Source: a virus
Virus record (IMG/VR): IMGVR_UViG_3300044683_000172
Coordinates: 1 to 64,000 of that record
Length of the DNA stretch: 64,000 nucleotides
Direction: 5' to 3' (one strand)
A model generated the notes under the pieces. That model made no database searches. It saw only the letters and a list, made by a program, of their open reading frames with translations, and was not told where the DNA came from. Positions 2,061 to 44,453 of this stretch are shown one piece after another. Position 1 is the stretch's first letter, and each line of letters opens with the position of its first letter. A program made the position numbers and the translations under genes.

Positions 2061-2915
2061 TTAAATGACTGGAATTTTCCTGCAGCGACAATTTATTGCC
2101 CATCCTGGCGGCCCCAAATCGCCTTTCTTCAGATCGAATTCACCCCCGATTTGCCAAAGACGAGGGTCATTCAATTTGAATATGTGCCCATCCATTTTCT
2201 GGTGAGAATGGCGCGGTTCTTTTCCCGCCGATGAATGGGCCCATTCGAATTCTTCGACGCCATTTTCGGCCATTCGTTCGTCGCTCAAAGACGAATAAAG
2301 CTTACTTGTTTGGTCGCGCGCAATCAGTTTTACTTTATTCTTAGAGAAAGAGCCGATTTCCTTCAGTGCATTTTCTATCCCTGATTGGCCTTGTTCTTCA
2401 GGATTGGGCGACGTAAGAGAAAGCATCACCGCATTGAATACTTTTTCGTGAGTTTCTTTTTGTATGTTTGTGATGAGCGTGTGGTTGAACTCTTGCGCGG
2501 CTTGCAGCGTATTTGCGACATTCGAAGTATAGGCTGCGCGCGGCTGGTCGATTCCAGCCGTCTTCAGGCTCATCAGCGTCGCTGTTGTTGCGCCTTCATC
2601 GACTTTCTTGATGAATTCTGCAGCAGTCTTTTCTGCGAATGCATTGAAGATTCTTGCCCATCGCTTTTCCAATTTGGAAAGCGATGACGTGAGCTTATTT
2701 GTGGCTGCGGCATCTGTCGCAAAGAACTTGGCCACCGGACCAGACTTCAACGCTTCCTTGATTTGCGCGCGGTACTCTTCGATCATCAACTTGCAGATCG
2801 AATTGATTTCGCCCGCATACCATTCACGAATGGCAGCACTGGGGTTGATGGGGCGGCCGCGACCAACTGGTCGTTGATCGCGTCGTTTCCGCGATTTGGA
2901 TGCTGAGAAGGCCAT
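2061..2915 (-). CDS. head morphogenesis protein (SPP1 gp7 / Mu gpF family)
   Basis: C-terminal motifs WAHSSAGKEPRHSH...GPPGWAINCRCR are typical of the family. ATG at 2915 overlaps the upstream stop (TGATG). The ORF track's longer version starts at a TTG at 2942. Confidence 0.85.
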   Translation of the reverse strand: MAFSASKSRKRRDQRPVGRGRPINPSAAIREWYAGEINSICKLMIEEYRAQIKEALKSGPVAKFFATDAAATNKLTSSLSKLEKRWARIFNAFAEKTAAEFIKKVDEGATTATLMSLKTAGIDQPRAAYTSNVANTLQAAQEFNHTLITNIQKETHEKVFNAVMLSLTSPNPEEQGQSGIENALKEIGSFSKNKVKLIARDQTSKLYSSLSDERMAENGVEEFEWAHSSAGKEPRHSHQKMDGHIFKLNDPRLWQIGGEFDLKKGDLGPPGWAINCRCRKIPVI

Positions 2916-3316
2916 CAAAGTTCTTTGCCAGTCAAGACCCAACGCTTATTCTTCGGACCTTGTCCGGCTTCTTGATAGTTGACGGCTTCATATCGCTTGC
3001 CGTTCTTGTGAAACTCGCCAGTACTTCCGTTGCTATTTTTGATCGACAGGCCGCTGATCTTTTTGGTGCCGGCGATCTTTTCTGTTGCGGCTTCCAACTC
3101 TTTCGTTTTCGCTGCGCCCGGGCGCTGTGGAGTTCCAGAGGCGCTGAATTTGCCGGCCTGGTTCGGCTTTCCGTTGCCTTTCCTGGCACCGCTGGTATTT
3201 GCACCGCCGGAACCGAATTGTCCATTCGGTGCGCGCTTATGCTCGGACTCATTCCATTCGTCCATGGCCGAGTTTGCGGCCTTGAGTTTTGCGAGAATTT
3301 GCTTTGTGGTTACCAT
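2915..3316 (-). CDS. hypothetical protein (Gly/Lys-rich)
   Basis: 133-aa ORF in the head module, coupled to the downstream gene. No recognisable motif. Confidence 0.6.
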   Translation of the reverse strand: MVTTKQILAKLKAANSAMDEWNESEHKRAPNGQFGSGGANTSGARKGNGKPNQAGKFSASGTPQRPGAAKTKELEAATEKIAGTKKISGLSIKNSNGSTGEFHKNGKRYEAVNYQEAGQGPKNKRWVLTGKEL

Positions 3317-3765: not shown

Positions 3766-6300
3766 TTATCCTTGATTATTGGATTCACCGTCCGCCATGT
3801 GCGGATTAACATCAGATTCTCGCCAGAATTCGTTTGTGTATGGGCCGCAGTGAGCTTTCTTTGAGTTCAACCAAGCCTTGAAGTCGTCCATCGACAACTC
3901 ATGAATGGAATCAAATCCGTCCCAACCTTCCGAGTAGGATTGGTCATATGCTTCTTTTGCTTCTTCGCGGCTGTCGAACCCGAGCATGCACTTGTGCTCG
4001 TCAAACTCGCCGTCTTTGCTGTTTTGATTGACGATGAACGCCTTTTGGGACTTCATGTTGGGTCCGACAAAGCAATCCATCTCATCGCCATCGGCGCCTT
4101 CGAATCCCTTGATGAAGCCATAGTGGTGCGGCATATTCACGCTCCACTCATCACCGTCCAGGGTGACGCCGCGACGAGTTGTCCCGCGCGGATTTTCGAT
4201 TGCCAGCGTCATGCCGTGAAGCTTGATCTTTGGAAGCTTCCAAGGCGCTTGCTCGGTCGCCACGGACAACGGCCCATGCGTCGATGCTCGGACGGACGAT
4301 GCGACGCCCGGCTTAACCGCGCGGTCTCGGCCGGGGACTTCGCCCGCTCGAATGTCCACACCTTCCGGACGAATCTCATCACTCAGACGCTCAATAACGT
4401 CCGTCATCCGACCCAGGATGTCCATGATTGCAGGCGATACGCCAGCAGCGGCCGGATCAAGCATCGTAGTTTGTTCTTGTTGTGCGCGCTTTTGTGCGGG
4501 CTCTTGGACTTCCGGAACGGCCGCGACCTTTGGAGGGACCTCGGTGGCCTCTGCGCTTTCGTTTGCGCCCATTCCAATCTTGCTGCCCTTGTTGACTTCT
4601 TCCTGGCGCGCACCTGCCGTCACGAGGGATGCCTTCGACTTCTCCTGTTGCGCGCCGGCCTTCTCCAACTCTGCCAGAACATCCGGCGACATGCCCGGCT
4701 CCGAATTCCCATCGTCGTTGCCCAGTCGGTTGTATCCGCTGTACTTGTCGTCCCGAATTCGATTGCGCTCCTCGTCCGGAGACAGCGCGCCGGATTCGAC
4801 CAAGGCAACGCCGGTTTGAGCCTTCGTCAAGTTCAGCTCAGCGCGTTGCTTGGCCGTCATCGAGTCAACAGGCTCCCAAACGTGCTGGATTTTCACCGTC
4901 AGCCCAAGCGACTTCTCCAGCAGCATGTAGTGCCGATCAAGGAGCGGCGACATGTCGTGCTTTTGAATCGATTCAAGTTCTTCGTGATAGTTGATCGTCT
5001 CAAACTCACCAGTAGAATTGAATCCCTTCGGGGACGTTCCCAGAAGCTTCGTTGCAGGAACCTTGCCAATCGCGGATACCAGCTGATACTGGTTCATGAT
5101 GACGGCGTCGAAGTCGGCCAGAGACGTGTCGAATTGCTCCATCGTCTCTTCTTTTCCCAAGACCTTCACTGCGTGATTGTCTCGGTACTTGACCCAGAAC
5201 TTGAGCTTGGCAATGAACTTGTCTTCGTTCAGAATTGCCTTTTCGGTATCGACGTGGATTGCCGTCGTTCGTTTGTTCGTAGCAAGCAGCGGCGCCTCAT
5301 TTGCCGTACGTTCGGCGGCATAGACGCGCTCATAGATGCGCTGGGTCAGCGGGATGCCGCCGAAAATGTACGTCGGCTTCAGAATGTCTGCCGGTTCCGG
5401 ACCGCGAACGATGATGAGGTGGCTTCGGTGATATTTCTTCCCGCTGATGATCCAGTATTCCGGTTCATAGAAGTGGATGGAGGAAGGATCGGCCGTTGCT
5501 TCAGCCGTCAGCATCGGCATCATCCAATACGGATCAACCTGTGAAATGCCCTTGTAGGAGCCCTTAGTAACGCCATCGATGTTGAATGGCTTCTCGTAAT
5601 AACGTTCATCGTCACTTTCCACCTCAAAGATGGCGACGCGGATGCCGAAGATGTTCTTGAATCGAACCAACTGTTTCAGGTTTTCCACCAACCTGAACTT
5701 GAGATCATAGCGCTCCAGCTCATCACGGGTTGCATCGTCCAACTCTTCATCTTCGCTGACCGCCTTGAGTGTCCAGCCGTTCCTCACGGCATCTTCCCCG
5801 GGCATAGAGCACGCCTTGTCCACAAGCCAATGCTGTGCGATAAGAGCGCACGCCTGATATCCGATGAACGACTGGGAAAGATACCAGTTCATCAGCTGCT
5901 CAGGGACTGCATACGGAGTTTGCATTGTTCCGGCCATGCTGGGATCGCACGTGCCGCAGGAATCATCCATTGCGTAAGTCTTCGCAATGGGCACGGCAGA
6001 GTCCATGACCAGGGAAGTGCCTGAGATCGTCTCCACTTTTGAATGGCTCTCATCTTCCAACTCGGCCATGGGGAATGAATCGACCCCTCGCAGAGTGAGG
6101 ATTCGCTCGCCGTCGGTTACGGTCCAACCTTCTTGGCGCCTGACGCGCTCCATCGGGTCCAACGGATCGGTGATCGGGACAAATTCCTGTTTGGCCTCGG
6201 GCGCGCGAGCCTTTCTTTTGCGACCAAACAGTCCGGTGATCTTATTGAGCATGGTGGATTCCGATGGGTGTACGCGCTCAGCCCGTAAGTTCACAGGCAT
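3766..6300 (-). CDS. portal protein (DUF1073-type) with C-terminal inorganic-pyrophosphatase-like domain
   Basis: 844 aa. The central region contains VPATKLLGTSPKGFNSTGE, typical of DUF1073 portals. A low-complexity linker follows. The last 150 aa contain HHYGFIKG...DGDEMDC, matching the family I PPase signature. Confidence 0.85.
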   Translation of the reverse strand: MPVNLRAERVHPSESTMLNKITGLFGRKRKARAPEAKQEFVPITDPLDPMERVRRQEGWTVTDGERILTLRGVDSFPMAELEDESHSKVETISGTSLVMDSAVPIAKTYAMDDSCGTCDPSMAGTMQTPYAVPEQLMNWYLSQSFIGYQACALIAQHWLVDKACSMPGEDAVRNGWTLKAVSEDEELDDATRDELERYDLKFRLVENLKQLVRFKNIFGIRVAIFEVESDDERYYEKPFNIDGVTKGSYKGISQVDPYWMMPMLTAEATADPSSIHFYEPEYWIISGKKYHRSHLIIVRGPEPADILKPTYIFGGIPLTQRIYERVYAAERTANEAPLLATNKRTTAIHVDTEKAILNEDKFIAKLKFWVKYRDNHAVKVLGKEETMEQFDTSLADFDAVIMNQYQLVSAIGKVPATKLLGTSPKGFNSTGEFETINYHEELESIQKHDMSPLLDRHYMLLEKSLGLTVKIQHVWEPVDSMTAKQRAELNLTKAQTGVALVESGALSPDEERNRIRDDKYSGYNRLGNDDGNSEPGMSPDVLAELEKAGAQQEKSKASLVTAGARQEEVNKGSKIGMGANESAEATEVPPKVAAVPEVQEPAQKRAQQEQTTMLDPAAAGVSPAIMDILGRMTDVIERLSDEIRPEGVDIRAGEVPGRDRAVKPGVASSVRASTHGPLSVATEQAPWKLPKIKLHGMTLAIENPRGTTRRGVTLDGDEWSVNMPHHYGFIKGFEGADGDEMDCFVGPNMKSQKAFIVNQNSKDGEFDEHKCMLGFDSREEAKEAYDQSYSEGWDGFDSIHELSMDDFKAWLNSKKAHCGPYTNEFWRESDVNPHMADGESNNQG

Positions 6301-9023: not shown

Positions 9024-9263
9024 ATGACCCAGAAGCGATATGGCTGCCATAATCGGCCGCAATTGAAGACGTCCATGTTTGCGCAGGTCGGCTATCGCCA
9101 TGAGAAGCACATCTTGGATAACGGATGTGCGCGAACGGTCATGGTGCCGGTGTTCCGTCAGATCAGAACCAACTGGAAAGACGGCTGCAACTATGACCAA
9201 AAGGCAATCGATCCGCGTTGCCTTAACTGCCACCACCAGGAGAAAGACCATGCACATTCGTGA
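9024..9263 (+). CDS. hypothetical Cys/His-rich protein
   Basis: 79-aa ORF with AGAAAGGA leader. Several Cys/His residues (CHN...C...C...CLNCHH). Confidence 0.5.
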   Translation: MTQKRYGCHNRPQLKTSMFAQVGYRHEKHILDNGCARTVMVPVFRQIRTNWKDGCNYDQKAIDPRCLNCHHQEKDHAHS

Positions 9264-9909
9264 CTTCAGCGCAGCAAACAAAGCGCGCTCCGACAAGGAA
9301 TTCCCATCATGCGCCGATTGGCCGTTGGTCAATTGGATGAATGCCGCGCATGGCGAATTGGGCGAGGCGTCCAATGTTCTAAAGAAGATGCTGCGCGGCG
9401 ACTACGGCCCGAACGGCGAGCGCTCGCCCGAGTTTCTTGCGGCATTCGGCAAGGAGCTTCACGACGCTCTGGCGTACATCGATCTGGCTGCGACATGCGC
9501 CGGTCTGTCGCTGGAAACGGTGACCATCCAGAAGTGGAACGAAGTCAGCGAGCGCATCGGCTCGTCGATGCGCATCGACGCAGATGGGTTGTTCAACATC
9601 GAACAGAAGAAGCATTCCGCACCCGCTCTGGCCAGCGGATCGATCTGGCCTCGCCGTCTGAATCCGGATGAGGTGCGAATCGGTATGCTGGTGCGCTATG
9701 CCAACGGAGAAACGGCCCTGGCCAAGATCGCGTCGCCGCACGCCGGTGGATGGCACGCCCATCAATGCATGGGTGGAATGCTCTTCGTGAGCGCCAATGG
9801 GTATGGCGGCTATCTCTATGAGCCGACCCAACAGGACATCGATACGTGGAACGAGTGCAAGAAGTGGCGCACCGACTTCGGACGGCACGCCGACCCTTCT
9901 GGCGTTTAA
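9250..9909 (+). CDS. MazG-like all-alpha NTP pyrophosphohydrolase domain protein with extra C-terminal domain
   Basis: Internal ATG at 9250. WPLVNWMNAAHGELGEASNVLKKMLRGD...ELHDALAYIDLAA...KWNEVSERI fits the MazG-like pattern. Its stop overlaps the terL stop (TTAA, 9906-9909). Confidence 0.65.
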   Translation: MHIRDFSAANKARSDKEFPSCADWPLVNWMNAAHGELGEASNVLKKMLRGDYGPNGERSPEFLAAFGKELHDALAYIDLAATCAGLSLETVTIQKWNEVSERIGSSMRIDADGLFNIEQKKHSAPALASGSIWPRRLNPDEVRIGMLVRYANGETALAKIASPHAGGWHAHQCMGGMLFVSANGYGGYLYEPTQQDIDTWNECKKWRTDFGRHADPSGV

Positions 9910-11306
9910 AGATCGAAGAATCCTGCCGGGGCGCGCTTCGGCTTGATCAAGGACATGATTACGGCGTCGGCGATGTTTGGCGATTTGATTCCGCGCTTTT
10001 CTTTCATGTCCTTCTTCGATTCCACTTTGAACTTGCCCATCCCATCAATGTCCTTTCGGGGTGCGGCAAGTTCTTGGCACATCTTGTTGAGGGTCTTTTC
10101 GCCTACCATGGCGACAATCGCGTCTTTGTCGATTGAAACGAGTTCGTCAAATGGGTGATCGACACCCAAGACGACTGCTTCATAAGTCTTTCGGAACATC
10201 GATGCAACGCGATCCCACATCTGCGCCTTGATGTTCGAAAAGTGCTCTCTGTTGAGAATCTTGACGTGAGGCAATTCCATGTACACGCCGTCCGGCTCAA
10301 GAACGCTGCCGCCTGCGTTGAACGGGTTGTAGCTCAGAATGAATCCATCATTGTTCGAGTCATTCAACTCAGCAAACTTCGATCCAACGTGCGCTCCTAC
10401 GCCGATGGAGTCGAAGTTCACTTCTGCGCCATACACCTTTGCGGCATTGTAGACGCGCGTCGAAGATTTCAGAATTTCGTTCTCCAGCCCATCCCATTCT
10501 TCAACGTGATCGATGATGTTTCCGGTGCAACCGACCAAGGCATTCTTGTCGTCTCCGTCGTCTGCAACGTCGAAACCCATCACGCGCTTGCCTTCCTTTT
10601 TCCAGCCAAGCTTCTTGTGGGCGTCGATTGCGGCAAGTACATATTCAAGACTGATGACGCTCTTGTCGCCGCCAGTCTTTGGAATCCCTCCATAGACGTG
10701 TTCGGCGTTCTTCCGATCCTTGCGGTATGCGTCGGCAATGACCTTTAGCATCGTGTCGCTGAGGAATGGATTCAGTTGCCAATTGAACAGCCGCTGGATC
10801 GAGTCTTCCGGTGGATCAACAACGAAGTATTGATACACAAAGTCCATCATCTCATCTGGGTTCCAGATGATCCAAATCTGGGAGCCTTTCTTACGAATTG
10901 TCGGCTCGATGACGTTCCATTGGTCTTGTGTCAAGTAGTGAGCTTCTTCTAGCCAGAGGATATCGACGCCTTCAGTGGACTTGATTTCGCTCAGGTTACG
11001 AGCGATACCGTAGAACAGAAACGATGAGCCGGTGCGCTTGTTGACAATCGAGTTCTTCAGAATTTGGAAGTCATTGCGCCATGGGCTATCTTCGATCTTG
11101 TCTTTCAGAAGAGTGTACACCGATTCATCAATGCGGTTCTGGAACTGACGTGCGCAAAGAATCTTCAGTGTGAAGTTGGCCGCGAGATACACTGCAATGC
11201 CGGCAGCGTCGTGGGACTTGCCGGACGCACGTCCGCCATACAGGACTTTGTAGCGCTTGCGTGCGCGCCAGAAGTCCTTCAGATAAGGGTTGAGACGGTA
11301 AGCCAT
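9906..11306 (-). CDS. terL: terminase large subunit
   Basis: 466 aa. Walker A YGGRASGKSH near the N-terminus, WLEEAH Walker B-like motif and a C-terminal nuclease-type region. Resembles the PBSX-type terminase family. Confidence 0.92.
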   Translation of the reverse strand: MAYRLNPYLKDFWRARKRYKVLYGGRASGKSHDAAGIAVYLAANFTLKILCARQFQNRIDESVYTLLKDKIEDSPWRNDFQILKNSIVNKRTGSSFLFYGIARNLSEIKSTEGVDILWLEEAHYLTQDQWNVIEPTIRKKGSQIWIIWNPDEMMDFVYQYFVVDPPEDSIQRLFNWQLNPFLSDTMLKVIADAYRKDRKNAEHVYGGIPKTGGDKSVISLEYVLAAIDAHKKLGWKKEGKRVMGFDVADDGDDKNALVGCTGNIIDHVEEWDGLENEILKSSTRVYNAAKVYGAEVNFDSIGVGAHVGSKFAELNDSNNDGFILSYNPFNAGGSVLEPDGVYMELPHVKILNREHFSNIKAQMWDRVASMFRKTYEAVVLGVDHPFDELVSIDKDAIVAMVGEKTLNKMCQELAAPRKDIDGMGKFKVESKKDMKEKRGIKSPNIADAVIMSLIKPKRAPAGFFDL

Positions 11307-13582: not shown

Positions 13583-13914
13583 CCTTTTACTACACAGGAC
13601 GCGATCCTGTGGCAGACCTGCTCAAGATGTTCGAAGGGACGACGAAAGTTCAGGATGTCGTCGCCATCGGATGGCTGGATTTGACAGGTCGCCAGATCGG
13701 ATACGGCCGCGCTCAGCAGATTCTCAGTCTTCTGAACAAGAACATGGGCATCAACTCGTCCGGACCGATGGAAGCGACGGCAATCGACAGCCTACGGACC
13801 ATCGGGAACCAGATCGGCCACCAAAAGGCGCAGCGAATCCTGCAACTGCTGTGGGCGGACTATCTCAGAAAATGCGGCCATCCAATGGAAGGCGCGTTGA
13901 GTGGAGACCTTTGA
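13579..13914 (+). CDS. hypothetical protein with duplicated helix-hairpin-helix-like motif
   Basis: ATGA overlap. Internal duplication GRQIGYGRAQQILSLL / GNQIGHQKAQRILQLL. Confidence 0.55.
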   Translation: MTFYYTGRDPVADLLKMFEGTTKVQDVVAIGWLDLTGRQIGYGRAQQILSLLNKNMGINSSGPMEATAIDSLRTIGNQIGHQKAQRILQLLWADYLRKCGHPMEGALSGDL

Positions 13915-14016
13915 CACGTCCAACTCCTTCGCAAAATGATCATCCGCATCCTGGCAGCATCCGTTATCCTTGCTTTCTTCCTCTTTTGCTCGCCAATCTT
14001 GGCGTAAGGAGTCGTC

Positions 14017-14229
14017 TTGAAAATCTTTCTCAAGTTGGCGTTGATTCTCGCCATGGTGATGCTGATCTCCTTCATGTTGGGAGTCGTCTCGCCGATCCTT
14101 ATCAACTCCGATTCGTGGATCGGCATTGCCGTGCTGCCATTCGTGTGGTTGGCCGTAATCGGCGCCAACATCGTCGTGATCAAGCTTACTTTCTTCTCAA
14201 CCCTCCAACAACAAAAGGAGAACAAATGA
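14017..14229 (+). CDS. small integral membrane protein
   Basis: 70 aa, TTG start after a TAAGGAG SD. Two to three hydrophobic spans. Overlaps the SPFH gene start. Confidence 0.5.
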   Translation: MKIFLKLALILAMVMLISFMLGVVSPILINSDSWIGIAVLPFVWLAVIGANIVVIKLTFFSTLQQQKENK

Positions 14230-15050
14230 AACGATTCCGTTCGCTCATCCTCGCGGCCTTCATCGGCTGCATGTCGCTTCTCGCTGGCTGCGACAACGTT
14301 CCGGCAGGCCACGTCGGCATCCAGGTCTCGCGCTACGGCGGCGACCGAGGCGTCAACATCGACGTGAAACAGCCGGGCCGATATTTCAACGGCTGGAACG
14401 TGGACATGTTCCTGTTCCCCACGTTCACCCAATCGCATGTCTGGGACAAGGCCGGTTCCGATGAATCGTTCACGTTCCAAACGGTCGAAGGCCTGAGCGT
14501 CAACACCGATGTCGGGATCAGCTATACCATCGCGCCCGAGAATGCTGCGAAGGTCTTCCAGAAATATCGGCGAGGTGTCGATGAGATCACGGCCGTGTAC
14601 CTTCGTGCCATGGTCCGCGATACGCTCAACCTTGCCGGCGCCCGTATGGCAATCGAAGACGTGTACGGCAAGGGCAAAGCTGATCTTCAGAAGAGCGTGG
14701 AAGACGACGTGAAGAAGCAAGCCGCGAGCGTCGGCATCACGGTCGAATCCGTGTACTTCGTGAATGAGATGCGATTGCCGCCTTCCGTCGTGAACTCGAT
14801 CAACGCGAAGATCGCCGCGACGCAAGTTGCCCAGCAGAAGGAAAACGAGCTACGCGCAGCCGAGGCGGATGCGGCCAAGGCGATTGCCCAGGCCAAGGGC
14901 GAAGCCGAAGCGACACGAATCCGTGGCGAGGCGCTACGATCCAGCCCGCAGGCGCTCCAGCAGTTGGCAATCGAGCGCTGGGACGGCAAGTTGCCTCAGT
15001 ACATCGGCGCCGGTCAGCCGGTCCCGTTTGTCGGCGCGACGGTGAAGTGA
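14226..15050 (+). CDS. SPFH/band-7 (prohibitin-like) domain lipoprotein
   Basis: ATG at 14226 after AAAGGAG. Lipobox MKRFRSLILAAFIGCMSLLAGC. Body and coiled-coil tail fit the SPFH family. The upstream in-frame extension (13671-) is rejected. Confidence 0.8.
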   Translation: MKRFRSLILAAFIGCMSLLAGCDNVPAGHVGIQVSRYGGDRGVNIDVKQPGRYFNGWNVDMFLFPTFTQSHVWDKAGSDESFTFQTVEGLSVNTDVGISYTIAPENAAKVFQKYRRGVDEITAVYLRAMVRDTLNLAGARMAIEDVYGKGKADLQKSVEDDVKKQAASVGITVESVYFVNEMRLPPSVVNSINAKIAATQVAQQKENELRAAEADAAKAIAQAKGEAEATRIRGEALRSSPQALQQLAIERWDGKLPQYIGAGQPVPFVGATVK

Positions 15051-26872: not shown

Positions 26873-27010
26873 ATGATCAAAAGAAATGGCACATCGATCA
26901 TCTTTGCTTTCTTCGCGCTGATGTCGATCTTTGGTGGTGAAAAGGGCGCTGCGCTCGCATTCTTCTTCTTTTGCGGATTGACTTTGGATTTGAAGAGAGG
27001 GTGTGAGTGA
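26873..27010 (+). CDS. small membrane protein (45 aa)
   Basis: ATG at 26873 after GGAG. MIKRNGTSIIFAFFALMSIFGGEKGAALAFFFFCGL. Confidence 0.4.
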   Translation: MIKRNGTSIIFAFFALMSIFGGEKGAALAFFFFCGLTLDLKRGCE

Positions 27011-27852
27011 AACGAGAAGAGAATGAAATGTTGGACCAAATCAAATTCACTTCCGAGCACGAATTGCCTGTGCAATCCCTAAAGAGATCAGGGATTTACC
27101 GCATCGTATCGCCAAGCGGAAATTTCTATGTAGGAAGTGCTGTTGAAATTCGAAAACGATGGCGCAATCACAAGCGTCAACTTATCTCTGGCGTTCACCA
27201 CAACAAACCGCTGCAAGCTGCTGCCAAAAAGTACGGTTTGGAAAGCCTGCGATTCGAGATCATCGAGCACTGCGATTCTGATGTGCTCATTAACAGGGAA
27301 CAGTTTTACATCGACGCGCTGCGCCCTAAGTACAACACGTGTTTGGTGGCCGGAAGCCCACGCGGCGTGAAGCGTTCCGAAGAGACGAAGGCGAAGGTGC
27401 GCGCCGCGAATGTCGGCAGGAAGCACTCCGAAGAGACGAAGGCAAAACTGAGTGCCGCGAAGATCGGTAAGAGGCTTTCTGAGGACCACAAAGCGAAGTT
27501 GAGCGCGGCACGAATCGGCAAGATCGGCAAGAAGCATTCCGAAGAGACAAAGGCGAAGATGAGTGCGGCACACACCGGTAAGAAGTTTTCTGAGGAGCAC
27601 AAGGCGAAGATGAGCGCCGCGAATATCGGCAAGAAGCATTCCGAAGAGGCAAAGGCAAAAATGAGCGCGACACGAACCGGTAAGAGGCTTTCTGAGGAGC
27701 ACAAGGCAAATATGAGCGCCGCGCTTACCGGCAGGAAGCTTTCTGAGGAGCACAAGGCGAAGCTGCGCGCAGCGCGTCTGGCCTATTTGTCAAGGCGCAA
27801 CGGCGAGATTGGCACTTCGCTCGGATTTTCTTTCCCTGCTGATTCACTTTGA
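27007..27852 (+). CDS. free-standing GIY-YIG homing endonuclease with eight NUMOD3 repeats
   Basis: GIYRIVSPSGNFYVGSAVEIRKRWRNH (GIY-YIG), then 8 tandem SEE(T/H)KAK(L/M)SAAxxGKK units. GTG at 27007 or ATG at 27028. Confidence 0.9.
   Translation: MKREENEMLDQIKFTSEHELPVQSLKRSGIYRIVSPSGNFYVGSAVEIRKRWRNHKRQLISGVHHNKPLQAAAKKYGLESLRFEIIEHCDSDVLINREQFYIDALRPKYNTCLVAGSPRGVKRSEETKAKVRAANVGRKHSEETKAKLSAAKIGKRLSEDHKAKLSAARIGKIGKKHSEETKAKMSAAHTGKKFSEEHKAKMSAANIGKKHSEEAKAKMSATRTGKRLSEEHKANMSAALTGRKLSEEHKAKLRAARLAYLSRRNGEIGTSLGFSFPADSL
27376..27792 (+). repeat. 51-nt tandem coding repeats (NUMOD3 units)
   Basis: Eight 17-aa units (one of 20 aa) inside the endonuclease gene. These generate the spurious antisense ORFs 27088..27755. 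Confidence 0.85.
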
Positions 27853-31889: not shown

Positions 31890-32716
31890 AAGTCACCCTC
31901 ATATCCCACACCCAAAACGCTCTGGAGCTTCTGGTTGATACGAAGCACACGCGTATGCGCGGCAAGACGGCCGATCAGATGACTGAAGCCGAACGATATG
32001 AGCACTTCCAGTACATGCTTGATACGATCCGCTCGCCGTTCGAGTTCGTTGATTACATCTTCCAGATCGAAGGCGTGTCCAAGAACTTCACGCATCAACT
32101 GGTTCGCACACGTACGGGCGCGTATCAGCAGGAAACCAGTCGCGCGCTGGAAATATCGGCCTTCGATACGATCAAGCCGAAGGCATTCGATGGAAACGGA
32201 CAGATAGATACGCCCTTGAATGAAGTTTGGGCGGACGCAATCGCCGATGCAGACGCCAACTACAAACAGTTGATTGCAATGGGCGCCGACCTTCAAGACG
32301 CCCGCGCCATCCTTCCGTCCAACATGGCCACCAAGATCATGGCCAAGTTTAATCTCCGGACGCTTTCTGATATGGCCAAGAACCGCCTGTGCGCACGTAC
32401 ACAAGGTGAGTATCAGGAAGTCTTTCGGGCAATGCGCGCGGCGGTGTTGGAAGTTCATCCCTGGTCCGACCCGCTCTTGCAGGTGGCGTGCGTTGCGACA
32501 GGGCAATGCGCCTTTCCGCGTTGGGGATCGAAGGTTATCGAGACGACGGCAAACGTACTGGGCCGCGATACCGTCATCGGTCAGAAGTATCAGTGTCCGC
32601 ACTATCGGCCTTGGATGGACCTGTCCGCTCAGAAGGAAGCATTGCGCGTATCCTTCTGGTCCAAGGAAGAAATCGCGCAAGCCAACCCCGTCGCCAAGAA
32701 TGGCGTTTCCATGTAA
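31886..32716 (+). CDS. thyX: ThyX-family (flavin-dependent thymidylate synthase-like) protein with variant signature motif
   Basis: FQIEGVSKNFTHQLVRTRTGAYQQETSRAL aligns with the ThyX RHRxxxxxxxS motif but reads RTR. Downstream ARAILPSNMATKIMAKFNLRTL...RLCARTQGEYQ fits the family. Confidence 0.8.
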   Translation: MKVTLISHTQNALELLVDTKHTRMRGKTADQMTEAERYEHFQYMLDTIRSPFEFVDYIFQIEGVSKNFTHQLVRTRTGAYQQETSRALEISAFDTIKPKAFDGNGQIDTPLNEVWADAIADADANYKQLIAMGADLQDARAILPSNMATKIMAKFNLRTLSDMAKNRLCARTQGEYQEVFRAMRAAVLEVHPWSDPLLQVACVATGQCAFPRWGSKVIETTANVLGRDTVIGQKYQCPHYRPWMDLSAQKEALRVSFWSKEEIAQANPVAKNGVSM

Positions 32717-32724
32717 GGAACTTC

Positions 32725-33858
32725 ATGAACATCATCAACGAAACTCCCAAGCGACCGCTCTACATCTTCGACCTGGATGGCACCGTTTCATCGGACGGCT
32801 GGCGCAAGCATCTTCTGCCGAAACACCCGGACGGCCAGCCGCGTGCGGAGAATGATGGAACGATTCCCCACGATGCGTACGACAAGTACCATTCCCTGCT
32901 GGGCGGCGATATGCCCATGTACGCTGGATTCAAGTGCCTGAAGCGTGCCATTGCTTTGGGCGCCTTCATCGTTTTCTTCACGGCACGGCCGACGTCTTAT
33001 CACGAAAAGACTGTTGAATGGCTGGAAAAGTTTCTCGGCAACTTCGATTACTGGCTTTACATGCGTGACGATGATGATCTTCGCGGCTCCGTTGAGCTCA
33101 AGTTGGATATGTTGAGCCGTCTCAAAGAAACGCTGAAGTTGAGCGCCCATTGGCACTTGGAAACCATCGCCATCTACGATGACCGAGCCGATGTTCTTGG
33201 AGCAATCGGCAGCACCGGCATCAACGCCTTCCGTATCACCGAGAACAATGAAGTTGTGATGGTCTCGTATCACAACGGACATAAATTCCCGAAGGAGATG
33301 TCTGCTCTTCACGAACAGATCAACGCCGGAGCCGCCGGGAATTGCGACCCCAACAAAAAACAAGACGCGAACGTCAAGGCCATCGAAGAAACGAAAACCA
33401 TTGGCGATATCTCGATCAAGACGCGAACCGAATTCGTCGCGCCTGCCAATCACGTCAGCGGATTCGTTGATAAACCCGAATCCCTGGCCAAAGCCATTGG
33501 AAATGCATGGGAGGCTGTGATGGGCCTTACCGGGAAGCCCGTTCGAGAAACGAGCGCGGCCGACCTGCTGGACGAAATGGCCGCGACGTTCCGAGAGCGC
33601 AACAAGGTGTACGGCAACAACGAGAAGCTGGTTGGCGACGTGATGTCCGCGATGTTTCCGAATGGCGTGACGCTCCGGACGGCAGCAGACTTTCGCATGT
33701 GGCACCTGTTTGAATTGAAGGTGGTGAAGTTGACACGTTTCGCTGTCTCCGGCCTGCAGCACCAAGACTCCATCCACGACGACGGCGTTTATAGCGCCAT
33801 GTGTGAACGTCTGGTTGGTACCCACAACATTCAAATCAACCAGGACGAATCGGAGTGA
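32725..33858 (+). CDS. fusion of a HAD-superfamily phosphatase (T4 Pnk-phosphatase-like) and a C-terminal all-alpha NTP-pyrophosphohydrolase-like domain
   Basis: LYIFDLDGTV (motif I), FFTARP (II), IYDDRADV (IV). The C-terminal FRERNKVYGNNE...WHLFELKVVKLTRF...HQDSIHDDGVYSAM resembles DUF1599/DUF6378-type domains. Confidence 0.7.
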   Translation: MNIINETPKRPLYIFDLDGTVSSDGWRKHLLPKHPDGQPRAENDGTIPHDAYDKYHSLLGGDMPMYAGFKCLKRAIALGAFIVFFTARPTSYHEKTVEWLEKFLGNFDYWLYMRDDDDLRGSVELKLDMLSRLKETLKLSAHWHLETIAIYDDRADVLGAIGSTGINAFRITENNEVVMVSYHNGHKFPKEMSALHEQINAGAAGNCDPNKKQDANVKAIEETKTIGDISIKTRTEFVAPANHVSGFVDKPESLAKAIGNAWEAVMGLTGKPVRETSAADLLDEMAATFRERNKVYGNNEKLVGDVMSAMFPNGVTLRTAADFRMWHLFELKVVKLTRFAVSGLQHQDSIHDDGVYSAMCERLVGTHNIQINQDESE

Positions 33859-33860
33859 CC

Positions 33861-34268
33861 ATGGAAGACAAATTCTCTGAAGACAATCCGAAATACGGAA
33901 TGCCACCGTTGAATGATTATGACCGCCGAAAGGAGTTGCAGGAAGCCGATTTGTTGCCTGCTTACAGTCACTTCTCCCAGCTGAATCCGGCCGAGCAAGA
34001 GCGGCTGACGCTTTTGTACGAAGAGGCCAGCGAAGTCATCAAGGAAGTGGCCAAGATTCAGCGACACGGCTTTGAGTCGCGCAATCCGGATAATCCGATG
34101 GCGAACACCAACCGGCAGAATTTGGCCATCGAAATCGGTCAACTTCAGTTTATCATCAACGTTCTGAAAGAGCGCGGCGATGTGGACGGAAAATTGGTTG
34201 ATCACGTCGCCAAGGAGCGCCATCTTTCCATCAACCGTTACCTCCACCACAACAAATTTCGAGCATGA
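33861..34268 (+). CDS. MazG-like NTP pyrophosphohydrolase
   Basis: LTLLYEEASEVIKEVAKIQRHG...NLAIEIGQLQFIINVL fits the EExxE/ExxD all-alpha NTP-PPase pattern. GTG at 33855 is an alternative start. Confidence 0.7.
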   Translation: MEDKFSEDNPKYGMPPLNDYDRRKELQEADLLPAYSHFSQLNPAEQERLTLLYEEASEVIKEVAKIQRHGFESRNPDNPMANTNRQNLAIEIGQLQFIINVLKERGDVDGKLVDHVAKERHLSINRYLHHNKFRA

Positions 34269-43889: not shown

Positions 43890-44453
43890 ATGACTGAATA
43901 CAACATTTCCATCCAAGACCTTTTCGCTGCCGTCGTTGCCTGGGCGAAAGCGCGCAATCTCATCGCAGGCAGCGATCCGAAGACGCAAACGCTCAAGACC
44001 GTCAGCGAATTCGCCGAGATCGGCGCTGGCATCTTCAAAGAAGACATCGACGAAATCAAGGACGGATTGGGCGACACCCTTGTCACCGTGATCATCGTCG
44101 CGGCGCAGCTTGGCAAGGACGCATATGATGCATTCGAAACGAAAATCAGCCTGGAAAGCGAGCTTGGCGAAGATTTCGAAATGTACAACTACGAACTGGC
44201 AAGCGCAACGCTGGGGCTGATGGCCGACAACGTCATCAAGGGGCAAGTCAACGACTACATGATCAATCTCGCCGTGTTCATCCAGCTGCTTGCCGATATC
44301 GCCGAATCCCGCAGTTGCAGCCTTCACGACTGTCTGGCCGCTGCCTACGATGAGATCAAGGACCGCAAGGGCGTGATGTACCACGGCGCCTTCATCAAGG
44401 ATTCGGACCCGCGCTATGCAGGCGCCTGCGCCGAACTTGGCCTGGAGGCTTAA
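43890..44453 (+). CDS. MazG-like NTP pyrophosphohydrolase
   Basis: TQTLKTVSEFAEIGAGIFKEDIDEIKDGLGDTLVTVIIVAAQLG and C-terminal AYDEIKDRKG fit the MazG/dimeric dUTPase-like pattern. Confidence 0.7.
   Translation: MTEYNISIQDLFAAVVAWAKARNLIAGSDPKTQTLKTVSEFAEIGAGIFKEDIDEIKDGLGDTLVTVIIVAAQLGKDAYDAFETKISLESELGEDFEMYNYELASATLGLMADNVIKGQVNDYMINLAVFIQLLADIAESRSCSLHDCLAAAYDEIKDRKGVMYHGAFIKDSDPRYAGACAELGLEA

Follow-up and report, generated by a model that had tools for sequence, protein, structure and literature searches.

The InPase domain (PF18823) was defined by Iyer et al. (2017; PMC5512222), who described it as specific to phage-type polyvalent proteins, noted that it lacks a beta-hairpin found in all solved pyrophosphatases (PPases), and cited a fusion of a portal protein to InPase in the Burkholderia phage BcepF1. 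They proposed that InPase is injected, and clearance of pyrophosphate (PPi) was among the roles that they considered possible. In the literature that we searched, there is no measured enzymatic activity for any member of PF18823, no experimental work on PF18823, portal-linked pyrophosphatase domains, or Pbunavirus pyrophosphatase, and no report on the activity, the substrate, or the release mechanism of a portal InPase. (We dismissed papers on QatABCD and on ONT-cappable-seq as evidence: they are irrelevant and use the word in an unrelated way.)

Pbunavirus phages are used in therapy, and near-atomic structures of their virions are available. The portals of E217 and Pa193 are dodecameric. In the cryo-EM structure of E217, residues 97-528 of 765 were modelled, and the barrel points into the head and unfolds after ejection; in Pa193, residues 529-765 lack density. 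No ordered density was reported in the C12 maps of either phage for the region beyond the barrel, and neither structure paper mentions the InPase domain. We note that in the solved Pbunavirus virions, about 240 residues of each portal subunit have no model, and a conserved enzyme-like domain is among them. The Pa193 portal was detected in virions by LC-MS, as was the orthologous ORF20 of SCUT-S1 by virion mass spectrometry (84.5 kDa, 44 peptides, 59% coverage).

A portal gene with a C-terminal InPase domain

We analyzed a 64,000-nucleotide stretch of DNA (positions 1 to 64,000 of the IMG/VR virus record IMGVR_UViG_3300044683_000172), which we will call the window, and which encodes a portal-InPase fusion. 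The fusion is already known: it is represented by PF18823, Iyer et al. 2017, phrog_4660, and automatic names in UniProt and NCBI. The initial annotation was aware of no function that had been assigned to a fusion of this kind, but a paper from 2017 (PMC5512222) had already described the fusion and predicted a role for it. The discovery value is small, and the remaining interest lies in the biological role of a portal-tethered enzyme-like domain. The gene and its parts are:

3766..6300, minus strand: portal-InPase gene (Pfam; PHROG; end-to-end alignment with Pa193 gp19, 9b41_L, E = 2e-265)
4615..5904, minus strand: ordered portal body, aa 133-562 (matches 8fvh_O residues 1-428, the portion of the E217 portal that was modelled)
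4627..4686, minus strand: C-terminal barrel helix, aa 539-558 (predicted, full-length model)
4435..4626, minus strand: predicted disordered spacer, about aa 559-622, rich in Ala/Val/Glu/Gly/Pro (pLDDT and column identity)
4372..4434, minus strand: predicted amphipathic helix, aa 623-643, AIMDILGRMTDVIERLSDEIR (full-length model, pLDDT 83-93)
4255..4371, minus strand: extended pre-domain segment with a PEGVD...KPGV motif, aa 644-682 (moderate conservation)
3865..4254, minus strand: InPase domain (PF18823), aa 683-812 (Pfam, E = 1.2e-48; predicted model; PDB fold matches)
4072..4092, minus strand: DGDEMDC, aa 737-743, a DxDxxD metal-binding signature (codons read directly)
3769..3864, minus strand: low-confidence C-terminal tail, aa 813-844 (column identity and pLDDT)

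The ORF has 844 amino acid codons and a stop. The true start is probably M17 (ATG at 6252), which would give a protein of 828 amino acids, because the alignment to Pa193 gp19 begins there, as does an identical 828-aa protein that is already in public metagenome databases (P0036). The DUF1073-type portal body that had been recognized initially is supported by a Pfam match of the 844-aa ORF to PF06381 (Phage_portal_3, formerly DUF1073) at aa 148-496 (E = 2.9e-90, 303 bits), which corresponds to 4813-5859, inside the ordered portal body. The entire architecture is spanned by phrog_4660 (profile positions 9-764 of 765), and the alignment to the E217 portal (8fvh_O) has E = 2.7e-200. Judging by its sequence, the protein is an ordinary portal of a PB1-like myophage, with kin in Pbunavirus, Bcepfunavirus, and Xanthomonas phage Carpasina.

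The chain is laid out as portal body, barrel helix, about 65 disordered residues, conserved helix, and then InPase. In the full-length model, pLDDT is mostly above 80 across the ordered portal body, and the helix that corresponds to our barrel helix projects into the capsid in E217 and Pa193. The initial annotation described a low-complexity linker of about 170 aa before the PPase-like domain; there is a linker, but neither this length nor low complexity throughout is right, as the ordered portal continues to about aa 562, and the helix at aa 623-643, which is conserved, lies within the supposed linker. The spacer between them is predicted to be disordered (pLDDT below 50 over aa 555-614) and is poorly conserved (column identity of 0.09-0.15 in 111 homologs). 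The pre-domain segment is kept in Pa193 gp19 and in the fragments P0001, P0003, P0004, and P0007, and its P664 is at least 90% conserved. Beyond the InPase domain, column identity drops from 0.36 to 0.01 (it is below 0.1 past aa 820) and pLDDT falls to 42-51 in the full-length model.

In the solved homologs, the chain exits via the head-pointing barrel and residues 529-765 lack density, so by analogy, twelve copies of InPase most likely hang on flexible tethers within the capsid, directly above the DNA channel, where symmetric cryo-EM would not see them. The earlier estimate of about 12 copies per virion would likewise follow from the dodecameric portals of E217 and Pa193.

The domain is related to family I pyrophosphatases

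PF18823 matches aa 683-812 with 164.8 bits (cut-off 26.8) and over profile positions 5-135 of 135; an HMM that is specific to this domain finds just one copy in the window. When we compared a profile of the homologs to sequences from PDB, we obtained 33 family I PPases and the Pa193 portal. Similarly, the top 50 Foldseek matches of the domain are PPases (50/50), and its fold matches in PDB are PPases exclusively. The model of the domain by itself has a pLDDT of 84.9, with a core above 90. As far as profiles and predicted structures can tell, the domain is a trimmed and divergent relative of the family I soluble inorganic pyrophosphatases, with an OB fold. The classical PPase profile (PF00719) scores below its threshold (14.2 vs. 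23.5 bits) and covers just 29 residues around the motif. The C-terminal PPase-like domain of the initial annotation is nevertheless upheld, as profile and structure searches return the PPase fold only.

The motif was also located correctly: 3769-4218 encodes the last 150 aa, and on the minus strand, the codons gat ggc gat gag atg gat tgc encode DGDEMDC at 4092..4072, with HHYGFIKGFEGA immediately before. The PROSITE-type pattern D-[SGDN]-D-[PE]-[LIVMF]-D-[LIVMGAC] has a single occurrence in the six frames of the 64-kb window, as compared to a mean of 0.01 occurrences in 100 shuffles. DGDEMDC aligns to D65-G-D67-P-V-D70-V of E. coli PPase. Could the motif be a coincidence in an unrelated tail that is not a PPase? 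The poor match to PF00719 is what this would lead us to expect, but the match to PF18823 over its full length, the rarity of the pattern by chance, the PDB fold matches to PPases alone, and the invariance of the motif in homologs already refute it, and we give it practically no weight.

We examined conservation across 120 portal-fused homologs (49-100% identity). E702, N703, R709, Y727, G728, D737, D742, Q759, D767, E768, K770, and Y785 are 100% conserved. Conservation of the putative metal-binding aspartates had been raised as a check on the PPase assignment, and D737, D742, and D767 are among these residues, with D739 at 91%. In 32 InPase proteins that are not portals, these columns are likewise either invariant or conserved to at least 90%. 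The conserved acidic, basic, and aromatic residues appear to be those expected of a Mg2+-dependent diphosphate hydrolase.

The classical active-site set in E. coli has about 14 residues (E20, K29, E31, R43, Y51, Y55, D65, D67, D70, D97, D102, K104, Y141, and K142). The local hhalign alignment to E. coli PPase has 22 columns, and since the Y55-D70 block alone aligns confidently, we can only infer that the PPi chemistry is fully retained. (A forced global alignment had a probability of about 30% and mis-paired the FDEHK segment, so we set it aside.) Going by position in the predicted secondary structure, it is plausible that E702, R709, D767/E768, K770, and Y785 correspond to E20, K29 or R43, D102, K104, and Y141, respectively.

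Homologs and variants of the fusion

In a survey of portal architectures, which had been suggested for related phages, PF06381 and PF18823 occurred together in 120/120 of the best homologs. Identity is 50-58% to named phages and 66-67% to the nearest metagenomic relatives. As the ORF is unbroken and all of the best 120 homologs have the fusion, we ruled out that InPase is a separate gene that was mis-assembled or frameshifted.

In five close portal homologs, the tail is extended by a C-terminal ADP-ribosyltransferase (ART) exoenzyme domain. A distant relative has a split form, in which the portal (542 aa) and InPase (142 aa) are encoded by adjacent genes with a 4-nt overlap, and this InPase gene is located in the head module. 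InPase is also found in DarB-like, "internal head protein", helicase, and ParB-type giant proteins, and in giant polyvalent PHROGs. The ART-extended relatives and the stand-alone InPase gene are compatible with a role as effector cargo.

Genome neighborhood

The portal-InPase gene has terminase and MuF-like genes as its neighbors in a module for head morphogenesis:

9906..11306, minus strand, upstream: large terminase subunit (phrog_3717, 2.1e-69; PF04466)
2061..2942, minus strand, same operon: MuF-like head-morphogenesis protein (PF04233, 5.9e-12; phrog_324, 1.3e-76)
2915..3316, minus strand: 133-aa ORF between portal and MuF (blastp)

Genes were called by codon-usage scoring, as calling the longest ORFs had picked antisense ORFs. 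The MuF-like protein has 284 aa in the gene caller's version, and its location next to the portal is syntenic with phage Maja. In the 133-aa ORF, the motif EHKRAPNGQF resembles a segment that follows InPase in longer relatives (by blastp, 64% identity over 36 aa to P0050 801-836, and 61% over 23 aa to P0023 171-193). The same module of phage Maja encodes, according to its annotation, a putative capsid maturation protease; scaffold/protease and capsid genes are absent from our window, and an identical Logan contig stops just past a 608-aa ORF.

The genome also encodes a replication module. It had been said to encode four or more NTP pyrophosphohydrolase-like domains; we found profile support for two of these, at 43890-44453 (MazG-like, phrog_1992, 1.1e-52) and 33855-34268 (phrog_4856, 1.3e-14). 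The other two lack profile support: the C-terminus of 32488-33858 gave only a sub-threshold hint of DUF6378, and 9079-9909, which is MazG-like by eye, had no match in Pfam or PHROGs.

Proposed role

We propose, with a probability of roughly 55%, that the portal-tethered InPase is an active phosphoanhydride hydrolase that is carried as virion cargo, is cut loose, and is delivered early to act on a target other than bulk PPi. By the logic of polyvalent proteins, the enzyme, which we infer to be active, would be stored in the virion; it would be released from the portal by cleavage, probably as the head matures, and would enter the cell with the DNA, so as to act at the very start of infection. 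Cleavage from the portal would be required because the spacer, even if fully extended (at most about 450 Å), cannot bridge a tail of about 1500 Å. Pfam found no peptidase domain in the 844-aa protein, including between portal and InPase, and there is no demonstrated cleavage site there. A capsid maturation protease that acts in trans is a possible releaser, given the annotation in phage Maja. Portals remain with the capsid, which counts against delivery.

As for the substrate, E. coli contains millimolar PPi and abundant PPase. Relative to these, twelve molecules are negligible, so we disfavor bulk clearance of PPi; a low-abundance nucleotide or signal that contains a diphosphate, or very local removal of PPi, would be a better fit. 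A bolder version of this proposal is that the tail is a cargo-loading arm, from which InPase (and ART in some relatives) is clipped during head maturation to exit with the DNA and, in the new host, to hydrolyze a low-abundance diphosphate-containing nucleotide instead of bulk PPi. We consider this version quite doubtful. If it is true, then candidate substrates are an alarmone, an ADP-ribose-derived signal, or another immune signal, and the phage would have a pre-packaged anti-defense enzyme that is in place before any phage gene is expressed.

An alternative, which takes up the remark of the initial annotation on domains that generate PPi, is that the domain is a sink for PPi in the producer cell: late in infection, free portal subunits or procapsids that are permeable to small molecules would remove the PPi that arises from DNA replication and from the phage's MazG-type NTP pyrophosphohydrolases, and the fusion would merely secure co-expression. 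The genome does encode a replication module as well as MazG-like NTP pyrophosphohydrolases (at least two), the residues for catalysis are conserved, and PPi clearance is among the possibilities of Iyer et al. (PMC5512222). However, this leaves unexplained why InPase is regularly found in proteins that are polyvalent or lie inside the virion, and why ART is on the same tail in relatives, and even in the split variant, the InPase gene is still in the head module. Also, hosts have an abundant and essential PPase, so a minor structural protein would add little. Overall, we think that a PPi sink is unlikely.

It seems a little less probable still that the domain has a structural or ligand-binding role inside the capsid, with a site that binds metal and phosphate without turnover. 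Twelve domains, perhaps as PPase-like trimers or hexamers, might hold or organize the DNA end, nucleate the procapsid, or plug the portal. The domain's probable location, right where the DNA channel opens into the head, would suit these tasks, it has no obvious exit path from the capsid, and there is a conserved helix (aa 623-643) upstream of it. Furthermore, the family I PPases of bacteria assemble as hexamers, into which twelve copies would divide evenly. On the other hand, none of the acidic, basic, and Tyr residues in the full set varies, which is more typical of catalysis; InPase also occurs in many proteins other than portals and as a gene of its own; and a structural role would have to be reconciled with C12 maps for which no ordered density was reported. 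We prefer the proposal of an active enzyme that is carried as cargo.

Comparison to known systems

The same two-domain layout is found throughout the PB1-like portals (E217 and Pa193 gp19, PDB 8fvh and 9b41; BcepF1 gp124; Maja gp4; Carpasina; and phrog_4660). Our portal differs from those of the named PB1-like phages in its spacer, whose sequence is unrelated. Relative to the gene order of phage Maja, portal and MuF are separated by two added small ORFs (of 145 aa and 133 aa), and the 608-aa ORF comes after MuF.

As compared to the classical family I PPases (E. coli Ppa and M. tuberculosis Rv3628; PF00719), the domain is shorter (about 125 aa instead of 170-175 aa) and is fused to a structural protein, and the active-site set of 14 residues is mapped in part only. 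As with the T4 Alt ADP-ribosyltransferase and the MuF-toxin fusions, the putative enzyme would be stored in the head, at the portal vertex or close to it, and the ART on the same tail in portal relatives adds to this likeness; Iyer et al. also drew the analogy (PMC5512222). Whereas T4 Alt and the MuF-toxins are free or released polypeptides, the enzyme here is covalently part of the portal, with no known release step.

Unlike in the large polyvalent proteins, InPase is the sole effector-type domain in our protein, which has no zincin-like processing peptidase. Still, it shares with the InPase of polyvalent proteins (PF18823; PMC5512222) a full-length match to the profile, a virion-associated context, and the same acidic residues.

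The portal gene and its C-terminal domain

The C-terminus of the portal protein is a pyrophosphatase-like domain, as the initial annotation had claimed. The 844-aa ORF (3766..6300, minus strand) matches PF06381 (Phage_portal_3, formerly DUF1073) at residues 148-496 (E = 2.9e-90) and the full length of PF18823 ("InPase, Inorganic Pyrophosphatase") at residues 683-812 (E = 1.2e-48). The classical pyrophosphatase (PPase) profile in Pfam, PF00719, was under its cut-off in this ORF (14.2 bits vs. 23.5). Positions 3769-4218 encode the final 150 residues. Read directly from the minus strand, the codons gat-ggc-gat-gag-atg-gat-tgc at 4092..4072 encode DGDEMDC, which is preceded by MPHHYGFIKGFEGA; motif and position are both as originally described. 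Over all six frames, the window has just this one match to the signature D-[SGDN]-D-[PE]-[LIVMF]-D-[LIVMGAC], compared with a mean of 0.01 after shuffling, and the InPase HMM also finds a single copy in the window. The motif is not a chance match.

The longest ORF begins at 6300, and its M17 is the ATG at 6252 (minus strand). This ATG is probably the real start, because an identical 828-aa database protein (P0036) and the alignment to the portal of Pseudomonas phage Pa193 both begin at M17. (P0036 comes from a 68.9-kb JGI contig; a Logan assembly also contains this protein.) Residue numbers here are those of the 844-aa ORF, and are 16 higher than in the probable real protein.

The protein aligns end to end, including the InPase region, with the Pa193 portal (gp19, PDB 9b41, 765 aa; E = 2e-265), and also with the modelled part of the portal of phage E217 (8fvh; E = 2.7e-200). 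Because the DNA of the portal gene is only 73-79% identical to named phages (Xanthomonas phage Carpasina, Burkholderia phage Maja, and Pbunavirus phages, over portions of the portal body), we take the window to be from a new, distant PB1-like myophage. The portal gene is the first in a minus-strand head operon and is followed by a 145-aa ORF and three of the genes below:

3766..6300, minus: portal-InPase ORF
2915-3316, minus: 133-aa ORF between the portal and MuF genes
head operon, minus: MuF-like protein (PF04233, phrog_324)
225-2051, minus: 608-aa ORF directly downstream of the MuF-like gene
9906-11306: large terminase, further upstream of the portal gene

The N-terminus of the 608-aa ORF, MKRFFRLVAMLVIASASTAWAQ, resembles a signal peptide. 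This ORF has no Pfam match, its PHROG match covers just 28 residues, and phage Maja has no counterpart at the same operon position.

Fold and conserved residues

An AlphaFold2 model of residues 660-844, built with 33 sequences, has a mean pLDDT of 84.9 (above 90 in the core). When this model was searched against the PDB with Foldseek, family I inorganic pyrophosphatases took all of the top 50 places (best E = 1.6e-3, TM 0.40-0.45). Among PDB sequences, the domain's profile matches only 33 PPases and the Pa193 portal; the PPase matches all fall on the YGxI...DGDxxD block. With hhalign, PHHYGFIKGFEGADGDEMDCFV pairs with a 22-residue stretch of E. coli PPase.

Across 32 diverse InPase proteins that are not portals, Y727, G728, D737, D739, D742, Q759, F766, D767, E768, K770, A781, and Y785 are invariant, with conservation of 90% or more at E702, R709, W719, and H769. 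Among 120 portal-fused homologues (49-100% identity), E702, N703, R709, Y727, G728, D737, D742, Q759, D767, E768, K770, and Y785 are 100% conserved and D739 is 91% conserved, so the putative metal-binding aspartates (D737, D739, D742, and D767) are maintained. E702, D737/D739/D742, D767/E768, K770, and Y785 look like the counterparts of E. coli E20, D65/D67/D70, D102, K104, and Y141; beyond D65-D70 we infer this from position in the predicted strands. A forced global alignment to E. coli PPase is unreliable. Fold matches and conservation together support the PPase-like interpretation of the portal's tail, and neither of the two outcomes that the initial annotation named as refuting it (no PPase-fold match, variable aspartates) was observed.

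Architecture of the tail

The domain had been described as following a low-complexity linker of about 170 residues. Instead, alignment with the solved portals shows that the ordered portal reaches about residue 562, and a helix is predicted inside the claimed linker. A full-length model from 111 sequences, together with column conservation, defines these segments:

539-558: barrel helix
about 559-622: disordered, unconserved spacer rich in A, V, E, G, and P (pLDDT <50, column identity 0.09-0.15)
623-643 (window 4372-4434, minus): confidently predicted amphipathic helix (pLDDT 83-93)
between this helix and InPase: extended, moderately conserved segment with PEGVD...KPGV
690-812: InPase domain
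after InPase: unconserved C-terminal tail

Oligomerisation and docking on InPase are possible roles for the predicted helix.

Related proteins vary in this region. Five close portal-InPase homologues (P0050, P0058, P0060, P0103, and P0104) also have an ADP-ribosyltransferase (ART) exoenzyme domain, PF03496. In the two whose ART positions we examined, InPase is followed by a spacer of 280-375 residues and then by ART at the far C-terminus:

P0050: portal 132-482, InPase 652-775, ART 1151-1318
P0103: portal 177-525, InPase 704-828, ART 1105-1255

There is also a split form, in a distant PB1-like metagenomic phage (locus L003, 6376-8429; also L004), with a 542-aa portal, a 4-nt overlap, and a stand-alone 142-aa InPase gene (P0029) that is followed by Pa193_gp24-like, major capsid, and E217_gp27-like genes. 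Further stand-alone InPase genes sit in structural modules. In the window, the 133-aa ORF two genes past the portal has a WNESEHKRAPNGQF-type motif that is common to the post-InPase segments of P0050 and of another related protein, P0023; its version, WNESEHKRAPNGQFGSGG, matches both segments (64% over 36 aa for P0050). This ORF could be a fragment split off from a longer portal tail. We also saw weak matches between it and C-terminal parts of other portal PHROGs. The ART-bearing tails, the split form, the stand-alone genes, and the shared motif fit a modular effector tail.

Location in the virion and proposed role

The E217 portal was built for residues 97-528 of 765 (PMC10329688) and the Pa193 portal for residues 94-528, with no discernible density for 529-765 (PMC11456595). 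By homology, InPase would be present as twelve flexibly tethered copies within the capsid, above the channel. In the PB1-like phage SCUT-S1, the orthologue (ORF20, 84.5 kDa) was detected in virions by 44 peptides with 59% coverage (PMC6521218), a result compatible with either retention or loss of the tail. The word pyrophosphatase is absent from both cryo-EM papers (PMC10329688, PMC11456595). Structural work on these therapeutic phages seems not to have linked the missing portal density to the InPase domain that was published in 2017.

At its capsid-interior end, the portal is fused to a domain of PPase fold whose metal and phosphate site looks intact. We propose that the head stores this domain as an active Mg2+-dependent phosphoanhydride hydrolase. 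The spacer of 65-130 residues can reach at most about 450 Å, while the E217 tail is about 1500 Å long (PMC10329688), so a tethered domain cannot reach the cell, and delivery would need cleavage from the portal. Pfam searches found no peptidase domain in the portal-InPase protein. A putative capsid maturation protease is annotated in the matching module of phage Maja, and InPase might be released by processing in trans.

A rival explanation is that InPase is a sink for pyrophosphate (PPi) late in infection, alongside phage MazG-like enzymes. The initial annotation had counted at least four NTP pyrophosphohydrolase-like domains in this genome, and profiles support the first two of these:

43890-44453, plus: MazG-like (phrog_1992, 1.1e-52; Pfam MazG sub-threshold at 4.3e-4)
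33855-34268, plus: NTP pyrophosphohydrolase-like (phrog_4856, "nucleoside triphosphate pyrophosphohydrolase", 1.3e-14)
32488-33858, plus: HAD/polynucleotide-kinase-like protein (phrog_4889), with only a DUF6378 hint at its C-terminus (E = 0.02)
9079-9909, plus: 276-aa protein, MazG-like by eye, with no profile match

The other two are unconfirmed. PPi in E. coli is sub-millimolar to millimolar and PPase is abundant; twelve added enzyme molecules would have no effect on bulk PPi, but they could quickly destroy a signal at micromolar levels. For this reason we think it more likely that the substrate is a diphosphate-containing compound of low abundance, or that the domain acts only locally. Another rival is that the domain has a non-catalytic role inside the capsid.

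Two other plus-strand genes in the window are of note. For 13671-15050, the gene caller's 274-aa version (L006, 1203-2027) has a PF01145 Band_7 (SPFH) domain, a membrane-scaffold type that is uncommon in the early region of lytic phages. In 27007-27852, reading the translation suggests a GIY-YIG-like N-terminus, GIYRIVSPSGNFYVGS, and then about eight GKKHSEETKAKMSAA-type repeats in tandem; the product could be a homing endonuclease whose DNA-binding motifs are repeated.

Distribution and previous description

A search of 5.8 billion proteins gave 3109 homologues at E ≤ 1e-10. PF06381 and PF18823 occur together in all of the best 120, which include proteins from BcepF1, Maja, Carpasina, Serratia phage Hera, and Luteibacter phage Pluto (named "inorganic pyrophosphatase" at NCBI). 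The whole architecture is spanned by phrog_4660 ("minor head protein", 765 positions). With tblastn, the InPase domain was found in 474 of the 50,697 phage records searched. The nearest sequences, at 72-74% amino acid identity, are in Escherichia phages vB_Eco4M-7, RCIP0319, and vB_EcoM_WFC and Shigella phage CWP003. The domain also lies within proteins that carry the annotations internal head protein, Snf2 helicase, ParB-like, or tail protein. The contexts of InPase in BFVD agree with this picture.

Iyer et al. 2017 defined the InPase domain, reported that it lacks a beta-hairpin seen in solved PPases, and proposed that it is injected, either to clear PPi and so aid early transcription and replication or to degrade a nucleotide signal (PMC5512222). 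They also cited a portal fusion, BcepF1.124 (PMC5512222). The portal-InPase architecture has therefore been described before; it is also catalogued, and its function is a predicted one.
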